From positions 1 through 64,000 of IMG/VR virus record IMGVR_UViG_3300033571_024374: a stretch of 64,000 bases of DNA; one strand, written 5' to 3'. Positions 10,774 through 17,191 of this stretch are shown one piece after another. Each line of letters opens with the position of its first letter. Position 1 is the stretch's first letter. The notes under the pieces were generated by a model. The model was not told the origin of the DNA. It worked only from the letters and a program-made list of their open reading frames with translations, and ran no database searches. Source of the DNA: an uncultured virus (IMG/VR IMGVR_UViG_3300033571_024374). Its lineage: Duplodnaviria > Heunggongvirae > Uroviricota > Caudoviricetes. The position numbers and the translations under genes are program-made.

Positions 10774-10795
10774 AAAAAAGGGGGCAATTGCCCCC
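10774..10795 (-). terminator. Intrinsic terminator
   Basis: Palindrome GGGGGCAATTGCCCCC with A run on the left (U run on minus strand). Confidence 0.75.
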
Positions 10796-10815
10796 AAATT
10801 CCGAACAGACCGAAT

Positions 10816-11541
10816 TTACGCTTTTTTCTCTTCTGATGGAAATACATTTGCAGCAAGATTATCCTTTGTTCCAGCATCTGCTTTATCGAGCATTGAAACA
10901 TCAGAAAATTTTGAAGCCGCAATAGCTAAAAGTTGACCGAAATTAGTAACTTTTGATTTACCACCAAATACAATTACAATTGGAAGTTCAACTAATAATC
11001 CTTCTGGATTTACCTTTGTATATCCTTCATTAGGGAAAAATACTAATGATGCAGCTTGAGTAGAAAGTCCATTTTTAACATCGCCAGCTTCCCAGGAGAT
11101 TTTGTTTTCTGGTGTATCTGATGTATGCATGAAAAATCCTTTAGGTGCACTGTCACCAATAGCTTTCGCATCAAGAGCAATTTCATCTAAAGCTTTGATA
11201 AAATCAGCTTCTTTAGGCAACTTCATAGTTTCTAGATTTGAACCAGGTGCTGTACCTTTTAAAAGTGCTTTACCGCTACCCACTTCTTCTATTGCAAGAA
11301 CTCTAACATTTACTGCTGTAGAATCTTTAGAATCTGTTGATTTTTTCTCAACACCTCTACCTACAATACTAGTTAAAAGTTTTCTCATTTCATCTGGATT
11401 TTTAGCGGAATAAAAATCTTTTTGCAAAATGTCTAAAACTGGTGTTGCAAATGATTTTGAAGGACTAAATTCTACTTTTGGGGCAGCCGCAGCTTGATCT
11501 TGTTCATTAAGCCAAGATTCAAAAAGTTTAAGGTATTTCAT
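10816..11541 (-). CDS. Paralogue V1: putative virion-packaged protein (MKYLKLFESWLNE)
   Basis: Shares N- and C-terminal blocks with 12361-13089 and 16303-17037; GATATATA at 11575-11582. Confidence 0.75.
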   Translation of the reverse strand: MKYLKLFESWLNEQDQAAAAPKVEFSPSKSFATPVLDILQKDFYSAKNPDEMRKLLTSIVGRGVEKKSTDSKDSTAVNVRVLAIEEVGSGKALLKGTAPGSNLETMKLPKEADFIKALDEIALDAKAIGDSAPKGFFMHTSDTPENKISWEAGDVKNGLSTQAASLVFFPNEGYTKVNPEGLLVELPIVIVFGGKSKVTNFGQLLAIAASKFSDVSMLDKADAGTKDNLAANVFPSEEKKA

Positions 11542-11548
11542 AGAAAAA

Positions 11549-11584
11549 TAAAATAATGTTTAATAATTTTAGTTTATATATCAG
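11549..11584. repeat. 36-nt upstream element of V1, identical to 13097-13132 upstream of V2
   Basis: TAAAATAATGTTTAATAATTTTAGTTTATATATCAG read at both positions. Confidence 0.85.
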
Positions 11585-11694
11585 ATTTTAAATTTGTTTT
11601 TTGGATCTATACAGCTTAAGGTATATTAGACTATATAAAGAGACTATCCATTCATCAGTTTCGATTAAATCAAAATATAATAAATAAAAATAAA

Positions 11695-11726
11695 TTTGCA
11701 TAGTTCAATTCTTTTTATTATCTTTG
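11695..11726 (+). promoter_or_regulatory. Bacteroidota-type promoter for CAP gene
   Basis: TTTG-N20-TATCTTTG. Confidence 0.7.
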
Positions 11727-11757
11727 TAGTAGAAATCGATAGCAAAGGAATTATGTT

Positions 11758-12318
11758 ATGAAAAAATTAATTTTACTCGTGCTCTTAAGCACATCTATGT
11801 TGGCTCAAAGTCAGTTCAATACTGGTGATACCATCACAGCCATAGACAAACTACGCTTTTTGGATTCCTTAAATAAATATAGAATCCTTGCAGGTGTAAA
11901 ACCTTTACAATACTCTTTTCGCCAAGATAGTTTGGCTAAAATAAGAACAGAAACAATATTTAATCGTATCGATAGCATTACGGAAGATGATTATAAATCA
12001 GAAATCCTTAGTCACATGCATTTTAATTTAAGAAAAGACATCAAAAGATTTGATAAATCCCATATTCCAGTTGATAGTTTTATTCAAATGTATGGTGAAT
12101 GCTCGGCAAGATTGAATAGACTAAATGTTTGTAAAGACCTAATATCTGAACTTTTTAATGGATGGAAAAATAGTAAAGAACACTGGGAAATTATGTTAGA
12201 TCCCAATTATGAATATATCTCTTTGAACTGGTTTATAGATAACCATAGACATATTAGACTACGTAAAGGAACTATTGCTTCATTAGTTTTAATTAAATAT
12301 GATATTGTAAAAAAATAA
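11758..12318 (+). CDS. Exported CAP/SCP-domain protein (C1)
   Basis: Signal peptide ending A|Q; LNKYRxxAGxxPL, GEC, WKNSxxHxxxML. Confidence 0.8.
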   Translation: MKKLILLVLLSTSMLAQSQFNTGDTITAIDKLRFLDSLNKYRILAGVKPLQYSFRQDSLAKIRTETIFNRIDSITEDDYKSEILSHMHFNLRKDIKRFDKSHIPVDSFIQMYGECSARLNRLNVCKDLISELFNGWKNSKEHWEIMLDPNYEYISLNWFIDNHRHIRLRKGTIASLVLIKYDIVKK

Positions 12319-12322
12319 AAAT

Positions 12323-12344
12323 GGGGAAGTCAAATGACTTCCCC
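12323..12344. terminator. Terminator between C1 and V2
   Basis: GGGGAAGTCA-AA-TGACTTCCCC. Confidence 0.8.
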
Positions 12345-14954: not shown

Positions 14955-15058
14955 AAAAGGGACATTTACATATACTAATGAATTTAAAATATTTTTCTTA
15001 CATGATCCAATATATTTTTTATTATCTTTGTCTTAGAAATTAAATAAGGATATATGTC

Positions 15059-15628
15059 ATGAAACGACTCATCATCTTTTTATTTGCAGCTACGTCTGTA
15101 TTTGCACAGACTCAGTTCAAAACTGGCGATATGATCACTACTCAGGATAAACTACGTTTCTTGGATTCTTTGAATAAATACCGAAATATGTATGGAATAC
15201 CTGAATTAAAATATTCATTCAAGTATGAAGGTATTTCTGTAAATAGAATAGAGACCATTAGAACTCATATTAAAAAGATAGGTTATGAAGAATGTAGGAA
15301 GGACATCAGAAAACATTTACATATTAATTTTATGGAAGATTTCTGCAAATTTAATATCAATACTCTACCAGAAGACACTACATTTACTTGGAAGGGCGAA
15401 TGCACTCTTTCTGTAAATAATGGCTATGTCCTTGAAAAAAAACTTGATATTATTACTGAAATTTTTACAGCTTGGAAAGAAAGCCAAGACCATTGGTGCA
15501 ATATGCTTGATCCAGATTTTAAATATATTGCTTTGGCTTTTGAATACAAAGACGGAATAATCATTTCGGTACTTAATTCCTTTGATTTAGAATGTACCGA
15601 TGTTGAAAAGAAATCTTGTAATAAATAA
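15059..15628 (+). CDS. Exported CAP/SCP-domain protein (C5)
   Basis: A|Q signal; LNKYRxxxGxPEL, GEC, WKESQDHWCNML; TATCTTTG at 15023-15030. Confidence 0.8.
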   Translation: MKRLIIFLFAATSVFAQTQFKTGDMITTQDKLRFLDSLNKYRNMYGIPELKYSFKYEGISVNRIETIRTHIKKIGYEECRKDIRKHLHINFMEDFCKFNINTLPEDTTFTWKGECTLSVNNGYVLEKKLDIITEIFTAWKESQDHWCNMLDPDFKYIALAFEYKDGIIISVLNSFDLECTDVEKKSCNK

Positions 15629-15641
15629 TTAATAAAATAAA

Positions 15642-15673
15642 TTTGCATAATTCAATATTTTTTATTATCTTTG
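15642..15673 (+). promoter_or_regulatory. Bacteroidota-type promoter, near-copy of 11695-11726
   Basis: TTTG-N20-TATCTTTG and the same AAGGAATTATGTTATG start context. Confidence 0.7.
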
Positions 15674-15705
15674 TCTTAGAAATTAAATCAATAAGGAATT
15701 ATGTT

Positions 15706-16278
15706 ATGAAACAACTCGTCATCTTCTTGTTTACATTTACATCTGTATTTGCACAGAATCAATTCAAAACTAGCGATACTATTACAAATGAAGACAAACT
15801 ACGCTTCTTGGATTCTCTAAATAAGTATAGAATCCTTGCAGGTGTAGAACCATTAGAATATTCATTCCAAGAAGATAGTTTGGCTAAATTAAGAACGGAA
15901 ACTATTTTTAAACATGTTGATAGTATTTCTGAAGAAGAATACAAATCAGATTGGATGGAACATCAGCATCATAGATTCATCGAAGATGTTAGAAAATACG
16001 ACAAATCAAATGTTCATAAAGATACTGTTATCAATTGGAGCGCAGAATGCTCCGCTCGAATCAGCAAATTAAATAATCCAGATGATTTAGTTAATGAATT
16101 GTTTCAAGGATGGAAGAATAGTAAAGCACATTGGAAAATGATGCTTGAACCGAAATTTAAATATATTGTATTAGATTGGTTCATCGATAATCAAAGGCAC
16201 ATAAAATTACGCAAAGGAACTATTGCATCTCTCGTACTTTTTAGTAAAAGGTTTAATGAAAATTCAAGGGGTAACTAA
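15706..16278 (+). CDS. Exported CAP/SCP-domain protein (C6); start corrected from 15643
   Basis: MKQLVIFLFTFTSVFA|Q matches paralogue starts; WKNSKAHWKMML. Confidence 0.8.
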   Translation: MKQLVIFLFTFTSVFAQNQFKTSDTITNEDKLRFLDSLNKYRILAGVEPLEYSFQEDSLAKLRTETIFKHVDSISEEEYKSDWMEHQHHRFIEDVRKYDKSNVHKDTVINWSAECSARISKLNNPDDLVNELFQGWKNSKAHWKMMLEPKFKYIVLDWFIDNQRHIKLRKGTIASLVLFSKRFNENSRGN

Positions 16279-16289
16279 TGTTACCCCTT
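16266..16289. terminator. Terminator between C6 and V3
   Basis: AAGGGGTAAC-TAAT-GTTACCCCTT. Confidence 0.8.
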
Positions 16290-16302
16290 TGATATTTTTG
16301 TA

Positions 16303-17037
16303 TTATTTAGTTGTAACTTCTATACCACCATCTTTCGGTGCATAATTATCAGGAATCTCATATCCCAATGCTTTAGCAATGTTTTGTGGTTTCCCTGCAT
16401 TTGCATCTTTCAATATAGCCAAATTTTCAAAGTTTGATGTAGCAAAAGCACAAATTCCACCAAGTGTAGTTTTAATAGCTTGGATACTTTCTTTAGGATC
16501 TGACCAATTTATTAAATGACCTTCTTCATAAAGGCAGAAGCCATTACCAGAAGAATCACCACTCATACCACTTGGAAAGAATAAAAATGTTTTAGGTTTC
16601 TTTAAAATATTAGGATAACCCGTTTCTGACACCCAATCTTCTCCACTATATTTACTAATGTAGTATACAGAATCACCTTCTTGCAAATTAAGATCATTTG
16701 GAATGATCATTTTTATTGTCTTAGAAACTCCACTAGCTCTTCCTTCTTTTACAAAAATTGTAGCAGTTTTTAAATATTGAGGTATTCTTATTTCTTCAAT
16801 ATTGAATTTGATAATAGTAAGTTCAGAATCCTTTTCTTTTTCATTTTTCTTTACACATTTTCCCAAAATACTGCCCATAATTCTACTTGAATATTTACCA
16901 TCATCCTGATTAAAATCAAGTGATGTAATATCCACTACAAGAGTTTCTCCTGGTTTTTTAGGATCAAATGGTTTTACTTCTGATTTTCCTTCTTCTGCTT
17001 CGTTGAGCCAATTCTCAAACAATTTTACATATTTCAT
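16303..17037 (-). CDS. Paralogue V3: putative virion-packaged protein (MKYVKLFENWLNE)
   Basis: Paralogy with V1 and V2; GATATATA at 17068-17075. Confidence 0.75.
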   Translation of the reverse strand: MKYVKLFENWLNEAEEGKSEVKPFDPKKPGETLVVDITSLDFNQDDGKYSSRIMGSILGKCVKKNEKEKDSELTIIKFNIEEIRIPQYLKTATIFVKEGRASGVSKTIKMIIPNDLNLQEGDSVYYISKYSGEDWVSETGYPNILKKPKTFLFFPSGMSGDSSGNGFCLYEEGHLINWSDPKESIQAIKTTLGGICAFATSNFENLAILKDANAGKPQNIAKALGYEIPDNYAPKDGGIEVTTK

Positions 17038-17191
17038 ATTTACTATATTATTTTTATATGTTGAGTGTATATATCAAAACTTAAATACAGTTTTAAAAAT
17101 ATTTTCCTTACATTATAATATAGACTACTTCAATCAAAAGAATATAAAACACTCGTAGATTCGATATATACACTAAAATAACCAATTCATT

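Follow-up and report, generated by a model that had tools for sequence, protein, structure and literature searches.

A V-CAP gene unit in a huge T4-like phage

Exploring a 64,000-nt stretch of DNA (the window, positions 1 to 64,000 of a 124-kb virus record), we found by sequence comparison that the gene of an orphan protein family, here called V, and an opposite-strand gene for a predicted exported CAP-domain protein, with a hairpin between them and opposite promoter types, form a conserved two-gene module that is present in distant contigs. Its genes mark the record as a genome fragment from a huge T4-like phage, since T4-like core genes were found (gp32, UvsW_N, portal, a gp55-like late sigma factor, SbcCD, major capsid protein, head maturation protease, sheath, tube and baseplate), and the host is probably a member of the Bacteroidota. 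The full record was used for counts of boxes, promoters and gene copies, and G001, which is the same phage as the window, supplied 65 further ORFs for the late-box check.

The three minus-strand V genes and the six plus-strand CAP genes interleaved with them lie where the original prediction had placed them (Table 1), and all V and CAP copies in the record are confined to this one cluster. The V paralogues (241-244 aa) share 26-42% pairwise identity, with V1 at 26-28% to V2 and V3, and in all three a divergent middle is flanked by invariant N- and C-terminal blocks. Five of the six CAP proteins passed the Pfam cut-off for the CAP domain (PF00188); C2, at 13.6 bits, fell under it yet aligns as a CAP paralogue. 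A hydrophobic N-terminus ending in A and then Q, read directly from the sequence, was seen in all six, bearing out the predicted signal peptides, and none of the six has a lipobox cysteine after it. The Q-rule is known for Bacteroidetes, in the available part of PMC5837995. A pattern scan of 185,579 species genomes found no close relative of this CAP subfamily.

Table 1. Features of the V-CAP cluster (positions in the window)
Feature	Position	Strand	Description
Hairpin	10780..10795	-	GC-rich with T-run; after V1
V1	10816..11541	-	241 aa; leader MKYLKLFESWLNE then Q; most divergent paralogue
36-nt element	11549..11584	-	upstream of V1; contains GATATATA box 11575-11582
Promoter-like element of C1	11695..11726	+	host-type; TTTG, spacer ~20 nt, TTATTATCTTTG
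C1	11758..12318	+	predicted exported CAP-domain protein, 186 aa; convergent with V2
C1/V2 shared hairpin	12323..12344	both strands fold	-17.0 and -17.3 kcal/mol
V2	12361..13089	-	242 aa; leader MKYLKLFENWLNE then A
36-nt element	13097..13132	-	upstream of V2; contains GATATATA box 13123-13130
Promoter-like element of C2	13155..13186	+	host-type; TTTG ... TTATTATGTTTG
C2	13224..13826	+	divergent CAP paralogue, 200 aa; starts C2-C3-C4 run
C3	13842..14438	+	predicted exported CAP-domain protein, 198 aa; 194 aa from second ATG
C4	14454..14954	+	predicted exported CAP-domain protein, 166 aa; 22-26% identity to other CAPs
C5 promoter cassette	15012..15045	+	34 nt identical to 15655-15688; crossover site in C5-less variant
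C5	15059..15628	+	predicted exported CAP-domain protein, 189 aa; missing in one natural variant contig
C6 promoter cassette	15642..15688	+	host-type; 90% identity to C1 cassette over 50 nt
C6	15706..16278	+	predicted exported CAP-domain protein, 190 aa from ATG at 15706; convergent with V3
C6/V3 shared hairpin	16266..16289	both strands fold	-17.0 and -16.4 kcal/mol
V3	16303..17037	-	244 aa; leader MKYVKLFENWLNE then A; core replaced in L033
GATATATA box	17068..17075	-	upstream of V3

V and CAP genes carry different promoter types

A GATATATA box begins 41, 41 and 38 nt upstream of the start codons of V1, V2 and V3, and the 36-nt elements of V1 and V2 are exactly identical, both as had been predicted. 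The box is a genuine motif class, because the record has 47 copies of it, of which 33 precede a same-strand ORF start by 16-56 nt, and 30 of these 33 are intergenic. In G001 it was found at most 80 nt upstream of 13 of the 65 further ORFs, among them those for tail sheath, tube, both giant fibres and a baseplate wedge protein. No box lies within 80 nt of the capsid and protease genes, and the gp55-like gene carries one; a strictly late box class is therefore putative.

The four host-type promoters ascribed to CAP genes were confirmed: TTATTAT[CG]TTTG, which occurs six times in the record, precedes C1, C2, C5 and C6, and these account for four of its five intergenic upstream occurrences. Promoters of the TAnnTTTG type are described in the literature. 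C3 and C4 have no promoter of their own, each directly following the preceding gene. The convergent pairs C1/V2 and C6/V3 share strong hairpins, as proposed (-16.4 to -17.3 kcal/mol; folding z -4.5 to -4.8), and a scan found 8 terminator-like sites where 2.3 were expected. V and CAP are not co-transcribed.

The unit is kept in relatives while its parts vary

All four metagenome loci with a V body (L033, L034, L035 and L036) have an opposite-strand CAP gene adjoining it, the co-occurrence looked for in related phages; independent lineages with flanks are few among them, L033 being near-identical to the window, L036 having ~86% DNA identity and L034 spanning only 1.2 kb. In L035, where V is 31% identical and the gene neighbours are entirely different from those of the window, the pair retains its late box (-37), its host-type promoter (-39) and its shared hairpin (-18.3 kcal/mol). 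The unit kept in relatives consists of late box, V, hairpin, CAP and host-type promoter, in agreement with the proposal that V plus CAP with their regulatory DNA had been duplicated. PF00188 was found in none of four other huge-phage records holding leader-tagged proteins without a V body, two of which are at least 95% complete.

In L033, whose genome is 98.3% identical, the core of V3 is replaced (54% protein identity) and the six CAPs are 96-100% identical. One contig from another run is without V2 alone (join 12321>13156) and one is without C5 alone (join 15012>15656, across the 34-nt identical promoter repeat). The allele-matched effector/immunity pairing that the original prediction had suggested is in its strict form unsupported, because the V3 core was swapped with no CAP change and V2- or C5-less variants exist; nor is matching one-to-one, because there are six CAPs and three Vs. 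The dN/dS of V1 versus L036 was 0.18 (neighbour genes, 0.07-0.23), and no point-wise positive selection on V1 was seen in this comparison.

The core swap and the separate losses also fit a reading that we regard as possible but doubtful, namely that V, in the manner of the T4 internal proteins, is cargo for anti-defence or take-over that is injected into the cytoplasm, that the CAPs act early in the periplasm in a role unrelated to V, and that the two travel together only because recombination between repeated promoter/terminator cassettes carries the DNA between the cassettes along in one piece. In the available parts of PMC2839356 and PMC4122927, the PeSL cassettes of T4-type hyperplastic regions consist of early-promoter repeats and stem-loops that flank accessory genes and are crossover sites. 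The C5 loss across an identical repeat resembles this, and the promoter cassettes common to C1/C6 and to C5/C6 are near-identical; the unit here differs from PeSL, as far as the cited parts go, in its Bacteroidota-type promoter sequences and in also holding a convergent late gene. Hitch-hiking in a fast-scrambling region is, however, hard to accept, because L035 keeps the V/CAP pair and its regulatory layout among different neighbours, and the lack of CAP in the four huge-phage records without a V body likewise argues against it.

The linkage to V would also go unexplained if CAPs, as secreted CAP/PR-1-like modulators, and the many ankyrin proteins of this phage targeted a eukaryote living with the bacterial host and the CAPs had nothing to do with V, which we consider very improbable. 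The window has six ORFs with ankyrin repeats, and in eukaryotes and parasites proteins of the CAP superfamily are secreted modulators, both of which favour that idea; but short proteins that carry no export signal other than Sec would stop in the periplasm of a diderm host. The runs holding the locus come from freshwater metagenomes, an origin that neither backs nor excludes symbiosis.

V is predicted to be head-loaded cargo

The V leader, ~14 residues long, is nearly invariant in an alignment of 37 V homologues and ends in LNE, followed by A in V2 and V3. On other contigs of huge phages a V-type leader also starts a cytidylyltransferase-like protein, two ankyrin-repeat proteins and several orphans. 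Of 12 LNE[AS] sites in 60,357 residues, six lie within about the first 20 residues of a protein (0.8 expected): one each in V2, in V3, in the capsid protein and in three further proteins, of which two have a late box. G001 also encodes a T4 gp21-type protease (Peptidase_S77, 46.1 bits). V is predicted to be head-loaded, protease-trimmed cargo because the leader is modular, LNE is shared with the capsid protein and a gp21-type protease is present. The virion packaging proposed earlier thus gains these features and a box shared with tail genes, and it stays a prediction.

The leader, LNE and protease evidence also fits cytoplasmic cargo. As described in the available parts of PMC3012670 and PMC9026906, the T4 capsid targeting sequence (CTS) has 10 residues, is cut after L/I-x-E and is all that the hyperdiverse internal proteins have in common; according to the former these serve as anti-restriction cargo. 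T4 IPI, IPII, IPIII and Alt are like V in that a short N-terminal tag with such an ending sits on unrelated or hyperdiverse proteins, a gp21-family protease is encoded and cassette-like replacement occurs between close relatives; no sequence relation was detected among the sequences compared, a set that held no T4 sequences. V differs in a conserved V-specific N-block, which extends past the 10-14-residue tag to about residue 37-66, in a conserved C-terminal tail and in the acidic pI of its mature proteins (5.3-5.6).

The AF2 model of V2 (pLDDT 84, pTM 0.82) has a compact, confidently modelled alpha/beta body. Structure matches to the V2 core were weak and OB-like, the best having a Z of 6.3 and none reaching 8. 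The termini of the model pack with the core into one domain, which, together with the long N-block and the swap-prone middle between conserved ends, is what would be expected if V were a late structural or surface protein, flagellin-like, with anchoring termini, an exposed middle and a leader that is simply a common N-terminal helix. We find this unlikely, as the first ~14 residues of V also head enzymes and ankyrin proteins, for which a structural role is unlikely, the leader is modelled as a detached helix followed by a disordered linker (residues 11-20), and it ends at an LNE site like that at the N-terminus of the capsid protein.

An envelope link and a candidate entry/exclusion module

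Longer V relatives (380-545 aa) carry a C-terminal OmpA domain (PF00691) in 20 of 20 cases, and the N-module is common to them and V (hhalign probability 99.6%, E 3e-24). No signal peptide was found in the V-family sequences examined. Because these relatives end in a peptidoglycan-binding domain, the data suggest an envelope location for the V family, the compartment to which exported CAPs would go. This is a further difference from T4 internal proteins and speaks against a cytoplasmic destination. The OmpA domain is absent from the window's own V proteins and from all of G001, and T4 internal proteins reach the cytoplasm, not the periplasm (PMC9026906, available part); both observations weigh against an envelope module.

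We tentatively favour, at somewhat less than even confidence, an entry/exclusion module loosely like T4 Spackle-gp5 or T5 pb5-Llp. V would be synthesized late in infection, docked into the prohead core by its leader and cleaved after LNE by the gp21-type protease; at infection it would leave the virion and act in the periplasm or at peptidoglycan. CAPs would be made early from promoters of the host RNA polymerase and exported through Sec with cleavage between A and Q, and in the periplasm they would bind incoming V or else mask its envelope target. CAPs likely block the envelope entry step of V for later-arriving related phages, and relatives would be excluded, as by Spackle acting on gp5 or by Llp on the receptor of pb5. 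Copy number would shift when the repeated promoter cassettes recombine with one another, and V cores would be replaced by exchange of the sequence that lies between the conserved terminal blocks. Such a pairing may help cells already infected to keep rival phages out.

In the available part of PMC7677548, Spackle (gp61.3) is an early periplasmic inhibitor of the virion-borne tail lysozyme gp5, and it resembles the CAPs, as predicted here, in being an early exported periplasmic protein, one that neutralizes the virion-delivered protein of later phages. Spackle is not a CAP-domain protein, however, and the exported partner here is a six-member array whose binding to V is putative. To our knowledge, the Spackle gene is not paired with gene 5. 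In T5, the sources, as far as available, place llp next to the pb5 gene, and Llp and pb5 are tied through a common host envelope target, not by mutual binding; the likeness is that of a virion-protein gene (predicted for V) beside a gene for a small exported exclusion protein (candidate for CAP). Llp is a lipoprotein acting on FhuA, unlike the CAPs with no lipobox cysteine, and V has a head-targeting-like leader that a tail-tip protein such as pb5 does not need. As to CAP proteins of bacteria and phages, the YkwD-like ones (PF00188) have, like C1-C6, a signal peptide and a CAP domain; a phage example is the secreted LysM-CAP protein of Bacillus phage Stills, whose role is given as unknown in the available part of PMC4541274. 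C1-C6 differ from these in being single-domain and tandemly expanded and, among the loci that were readable, in being met only beside V genes.

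Organization of the V/CAP cluster

The original prediction described three minus-strand paralogues, V1 to V3, and six plus-strand genes for exported CAP-domain proteins, C1 to C6, and this layout was recovered in all its parts. The V proteins are 241-244 aa long and share 26-42% mutual identity, with invariant N- and C-terminal blocks. Between them lie the CAP paralogues, of which 5/6 scored 26.8-36.9 bits against Pfam PF00188 (curated cut-off 21.1 bits); C2, at 13.6 bits, falls under the cut-off yet aligns with the others as a paralogue. All six hydrophobic N-termini end in A|Q, as claimed for their signal peptides. 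The boxes noted before the V genes are copies of the late-type promoter box GATATATA beginning 41, 41 and 38 nt 5' of the V start codons, and the 36-nt element said to be identical for V1 and V2 is exactly so upstream of both. In the whole record 33 of the 47 occurrences of GATATATA lie 16-56 nt 5' of a same-strand ORF start. The host-type promoters proposed for four CAP genes correspond to TTATTAT[CG]TTTG before C1, C2, C5 and C6; this motif occurs six times in the record, five times in intergenic positions upstream of ORFs, and these four copies are among the five. The four genes have a promoter-like layout of TTTG, a spacer of ~20 nt and then TAnnTTTG, and C3 and C4, which have no promoter of their own, begin 15 nt past the preceding stop codon. 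Hairpins are found 3' of V1 and, as claimed for the convergent V/CAP pairs, between C1/V2 and C6/V3, the latter two folding equally on either strand (z about -4.6). Beyond the cluster, no further V or CAP copies were found in the 124-kb record.

Two further observations concern the leaders of these genes. AAGGA, a Shine-Dalgarno-like word, stands 8-13 nt before the ATG of the four CAP genes with their own promoter and before none of the V genes; SD sequences are said to be missing from Bacteroidetes mRNAs (PMC6847099). In addition, a 21-nt inverted repeat holds two back-to-back GATATATA boxes, one serving V3 and the other a 97-aa ORF with an HK(S/P)EHKPEHKPEH repeat.

Positions of the cluster genes and of other features discussed in the text
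Feature	Sequence	Position	Strand
V1	window	10816-11541	-
V2	window	12361-13089	-
V3	window	16303-17037	-
C1-C6	window	11758-16278	+
AAGGA-bearing CAP leaders	window	11740-11757, 13206-13223, 15041-15058, 15688-15705	+
Region of the 21-nt inverted repeat with two GATATATA boxes and of the 97-aa ORF	window	17061-17177 and 17192-17485	
Ankyrin-repeat ORFs	window	2012-2326, 32374-34071, 34705-35244, 36645-37205, 37242-38480, 46143-46619	
ORF with DUF5824 match	window	36005-36595	
Late-box amidase gene	window	39099-39764	
1,895-aa protein with BNR/PSII_BNR-type repeats	window	39859-45546	
UDP-glucose/GDP-mannose dehydrogenase	window	47078-48919	
Late-box 506-aa PG_binding_1 protein	G000	68816-70336	
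Late-box RimK-like ATP-grasp protein	G000	95596-97014	
ORF with phrog_9787 match	G000	104939-105352	
Head maturation protease ORF	L044 (G001)	3459-5477 (166459-168477)	

V and CAP genes are linked in relatives

A V-profile search returned six metagenome loci, four with a V body and two with leader-tagged proteins only. A CAP gene on the opposite strand lies directly beside V in 4/4 of the V-body loci, and the two loci with leader-tagged proteins only have no CAP. One of the four (L033) carries a near-identical V/CAP cluster; in another (L036, ~86% DNA identity) genes like C2 and C3 lie directly next to the V1 orthologue, and C1 and V2 are missing; a third (L034) is a 1.2-kb contig in which V and CAP are convergent. 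In the fourth (L035) the best identity is 31% for V and 40% for CAP, and the neighbours, which include ankyrins, a SAM synthetase and a tyrosinase-like gene, are entirely different from those in the window. This locus keeps GATATATA at -37 of V, TTATTATGTTTG at -39 of CAP and a hairpin of -18.3 kcal/mol between the convergent genes. The linkage is drawn from three or four independent lineages with readable flanks. Of the other huge-phage records, four encode leader-tagged proteins without a V body, and PF00188 was detected in 0/4 of these; two of the four are 95-98% complete. The longest contigs were of equal size for V and CAP matches (1664, 2183, 2999, 17104, 19270 and 33672), as they were for a CAP and a V relative fused to an OmpA domain (20655), which is no more than an indirect hint that V and CAP sit on shared contigs.

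V carries a modular leader

V gave no match in Pfam, PHROG, NCBIfam or PDB sequences, toxin domains included. A word-indexed search retrieved 53 homologues and an exhaustive profile search of 1.84 billion proteins 75 representatives, including 20 V-OmpA forms; apart from these fusions, all are unnamed or 'hypothetical'. V was not found in IMG/VR outside the same phage, nor in the genome contig collection by scans with narrow peptide patterns, which can miss relatives. Across 37 aligned members, columns are conserved at a mean of 0.95 over residues 1-10 and 0.65-0.79 over residues 11-40 and 221-240, and this value falls to 0.21-0.34 over large parts of the centre (residues 81-120 and 131-160).

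Residues 1 to ~14, MKY[VLI]KLFE[NS]WLNE, form a modular tag. The same leader begins a cytidylyltransferase-like (CTP_transf_like) protein and an orphan, both in one 68-kb contig, as well as orphans of 385-kb and 464-kb phage records and two ankyrin-repeat proteins of L035 (MKYIKLFE-type). A strict DNA pattern detected it at 1-3 copies per record in 5/5 records, with 0 control hits; counts of MKY[VLI]KLF stretches in collections were set aside, being near chance for a 7-mer. The remainder of the N-terminal block is V-specific, residues 1-40 as query returning the V family only (51 hits). A literature search did not find the leader strings in print.

The confident AF2 model of V2 (pLDDT 84.2, pTM 0.82) places the leader in a separate helix (residues 5-15), with residues 11-20 disordered and the remainder forming one alpha/beta body. 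Comparison of the core with 48,161 PDB chains gave weak matches of OB-like type, the best with Z 6.3 and an rmsd of 3.5 over 83 residues. Z reached 5 or more for 15 chains and 8 or more for none; the best Z is under the acceptance bar, and no fold is assigned. For V2 the Atlas model had low confidence (pLDDT 0.35), and its structural neighbours were uninformative. A 332-aa metagenome protein, P0007, joins the unrelated Pfam domains PF23091, PF07699 and PF26010 to the C-terminal half of a V protein (83% identity), which may reflect either chimeric assembly or a genuine fusion.

V is predicted to be packaged into the head and trimmed

The tag ends in WLNE|A in V2 and V3 and in WLNE|Q in V1. T4 gp21 cuts after L/I-x-E (PMC9026906), and LNE followed by A fits this cleavage site. 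Among the 194 ORFs of the phage (60,357 residues), LNE[AS] occurs 12 times, and six of these sites fall within the first ~20 residues, compared with 0.8 expected. The N-terminal sites are those of V2 and V3, the major capsid protein (MQVLNE|A, plus TLNE|S at residues 40-44), a 140-aa orphan (MKEFKEYLNE|S) and two proteins with a late box and LNE|S. Of these two, one has 506 aa and a PG_binding_1 domain at its C-terminus, and the other is a RimK-like ATP-grasp protein; both are further candidates for protease-processed virion cargo.

A Peptidase_S77 (gp21-type) domain was detected in G001, the longer record of the same phage (46.1 bits), and the phrog_207 head maturation protease gene adjoins the capsid gene. 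The protease ORF, of 672 aa, far exceeds its Peptidase_S77 domain and lies immediately 5' of the 580-aa capsid gene. Between 125 and 200 kb of G001, GATATATA stands within 80 nt 5' of 13/65 ORFs, among them the genes for sheath, tube, both giant fibres and baseplate wedge; the capsid and protease genes are without it. Together, the leader, the LNE sites, the gp21-type protease, the box on structural genes and the V2 model predict that V is cargo of the T4 type, made late, targeted to the head and trimmed by the protease. Like the capsid-targeted internal proteins of T4, V has a short N-terminal tag on unrelated bodies that ends in L/I-x-E, and its phage encodes a gp21-family prohead protease; the V leader presumably resembles the T4 CTS tag. 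Since the leader is also found on the ankyrin proteins of L035, some ankyrins may be head cargo too. Tag-loaded cargo is already a known kind; T4-type swappable head cargo would here be found in huge Bacteroidota phages as well, and might include proteins that act in the envelope rather than the cytoplasm.

Longer relatives of V carry a peptidoglycan-binding domain

In 20/20 of the longer V relatives scanned (380-545 aa), the C-terminus is a peptidoglycan-binding domain of the OmpA family (PF00691). These proteins share with V the leader and a common N-module of ~66 residues (hhalign probability 99.6%, E 3e-24), and in several the hmmsearch match reaches profile position 203-225. One source names them 'OmpA-like peptidoglycan-associated protein'; a literature search did not find OmpA-fused members of the cargo family in print. 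No signal peptide was seen in the V-OmpA sequences inspected. Combined with a head-targeting-like leader, the peptidoglycan-binding module suggests that the V-OmpA relatives would reach the periplasm by ejection from the virion. The V proteins of the window, in which no OmpA domain was detected, have a short conserved tail, IAKALGYEIPDNY[TA]P, where the relatives have that domain, and none was found anywhere in G001.

CAP proteins and a possible exclusion function

C1, C3 and C6 are mutually 60-68% identical, C5 is 40-43% identical to them, and C2 and C4 show 22-28% identity to all others. H88, E114 and H142 (C1 numbering), candidates for the His/Glu cavity residues of the CAP fold, are conserved in 36-37 of 38 aligned members, C2 and C4 lacking some of them. 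The CAPs apparently carry a secretion signal: [AGS]Q was found within residues 11-45 of 33/38 family members, the signal peptides being judged by eye from the sequence. They were rejected as lipoproteins, no Cys following the signal peptide. The subfamily comprises at least 63 close homologues (47-93% identity); it was found neither in IMG/VR outside the same phage nor in 185,579 species genomes by a narrow peptide-pattern scan that can miss relatives, and no PDB sequence matched a CAP profile at E <= 0.01. Many bacteria, and some phages, encode CAP/YkwD-like proteins, to which no role has been assigned. The sole mention of a phage CAP protein that our literature search returned calls its role unknown (PMC4541274); the search turned up no link of CAP-domain proteins to phage exclusion, nor the pairing of tag-loaded cargo with exported CAP-domain proteins.

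Our preferred reading, quite possible if short of probable, is that the locus is an entry/exclusion module, with head-loaded V acting on the envelope and exported, early CAPs blocking the V-dependent step. The leader would load V into heads, V would be trimmed after LNE, and infection would deliver it to the envelope. The CAPs would be produced early from the host-type promoters and exported, and in the periplasm they would stop the V-dependent step of relatives that arrive later, whether through binding to V or by covering the V target in the envelope. Functional precedents are T4 Spackle, directed against gp5 (PMC7677548), and T5 Llp, whose gene adjoins the pb5 gene and which acts via the common receptor. 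Their conserved pairing with a predicted virion cargo family that has peptidoglycan-binding relatives allows the role of CAPs to be framed as a concrete and testable hypothesis.

A V core can be exchanged independently of the CAPs

The original prediction of allele-matched V/CAP immunity was not supported. Between the window and L033, V3 is 53.7% identical at the protein level, compared with 98.3% for V1, 99.6% for V2 and 96.3-100% for C1-C6. Apart from the middle of V3, L033 is 98.3% identical to window 7026-21107; the V3 gene itself is essentially the same in both over 112 nt at its start and ~95 nt at its end, and is scrambled over the intervening ~540 nt. Because the V3 core differs and the CAPs match, the V core is exchangeable without change in any CAP. 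If the CAPs are directed at a host component or at those blocks of V that are conserved, such a swap does not contradict the proposed exclusion of relatives. Two observations disagree with a toxin/immunity pair: V and CAP, though adjacent, lie on opposite strands under different promoter classes with a terminator between them rather than being co-transcribed, and V3 has diverged between the window and L033 with near-constant CAPs rather than co-varying with them.

Variant contigs from independent freshwater runs, each variant being a single contig at depth 4-7, bring together distant positions of the window. Joint 12321>13156 removes V2 alone (shorter side 228 nt), 15012>15656 removes C5 across a 34-nt identical promoter repeat, and several joints that go back imply additional C6-like copies or CAP hybrids. 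Joint 11603>17038, with 21 nt only on one side, was ignored, and the low contig cover over the V3 core in sequencing runs X2 and X3 was left out of the evidence. The locus exemplifies core exchange via conserved terminal blocks and copy-number change via repeated promoter cassettes. The main rival to an entry/exclusion module, a possible but rather doubtful one, casts V as anti-defence cargo acting in the cytoplasm, in the manner of T4 internal proteins, with V and CAP merely co-travelling between recombining promoter cassettes; PeSLs are reportedly cassettes of this type (PMC2839356 and PMC4122927).

V1 is the most diverged gene of the block syntenic with L036 (68% identity, compared with 81-92% for seven neighbours). 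Its dN/dS of 0.18 (dS 1.18) lies inside the range of the neighbours (0.07-0.23), and strong point-wise positive selection on V was rejected. The V1 divergence fits long-separated alleles being exchanged, and not a fast run of point substitutions. A polymorphic form of the entry/exclusion idea, which we regard as unlikely, holds that virion-delivered, peptidoglycan-associated V would open or condition the envelope for DNA entry and that early periplasmic CAP arrays of the resident phage would neutralise this step for rivals; cassette exchange would let V cores escape, and CAP arrays would expand in reply. If true, it would provide the first defined role for bacterial and phage CAP-domain proteins and a new class of phage-phage competition module.

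The phage and its probable host

The parent IMG/VR record has 123,972 bp and is ~30% complete (CheckV), the window being its first 64 kb. The second record of the same phage, G001 (199,927 bp, 52% complete), reaches further than the first, from which it is shifted by +1,693 bp. The G+C content is ~30%, and megablast against 50,697 deposited phage records gave no match. T4-like genes include gp32 and UvsW_N as well as portal, gp55-like late sigma, tail sheath stabiliser and SbcCD; major capsid protein, head maturation protease, sheath, tube, baseplate wedge, two giant tail fibres, TerL and DNA polymerase are also encoded. TAnnTTTG has reportedly been named as a promoter in published papers. The A|Q ends of the CAP signal peptides, which fit the Bacteroidetes Q-rule (PMC5837995), and the TTTG/TAnnTTTG elements before four CAP genes make a Bacteroidota host probable.

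Several other genes of the phage deserve mention. Six ankyrin-repeat ORFs are present in 64 kb. The 613-aa UDP-glucose/GDP-mannose dehydrogenase has ~220 residues without a Pfam match between its central domain (204-268) and its UDP-binding domain (491-591), which could be an inserted element. The gene for the 1,895-aa repeat protein has a GATATATA box upstream and is divergent from the amidase gene. The phrog_9787 match (E 1.2e-29) is annotated as a translation initiation factor. Finally, one ORF of the window matches DUF5824, a Pfam family mostly from giant viruses.
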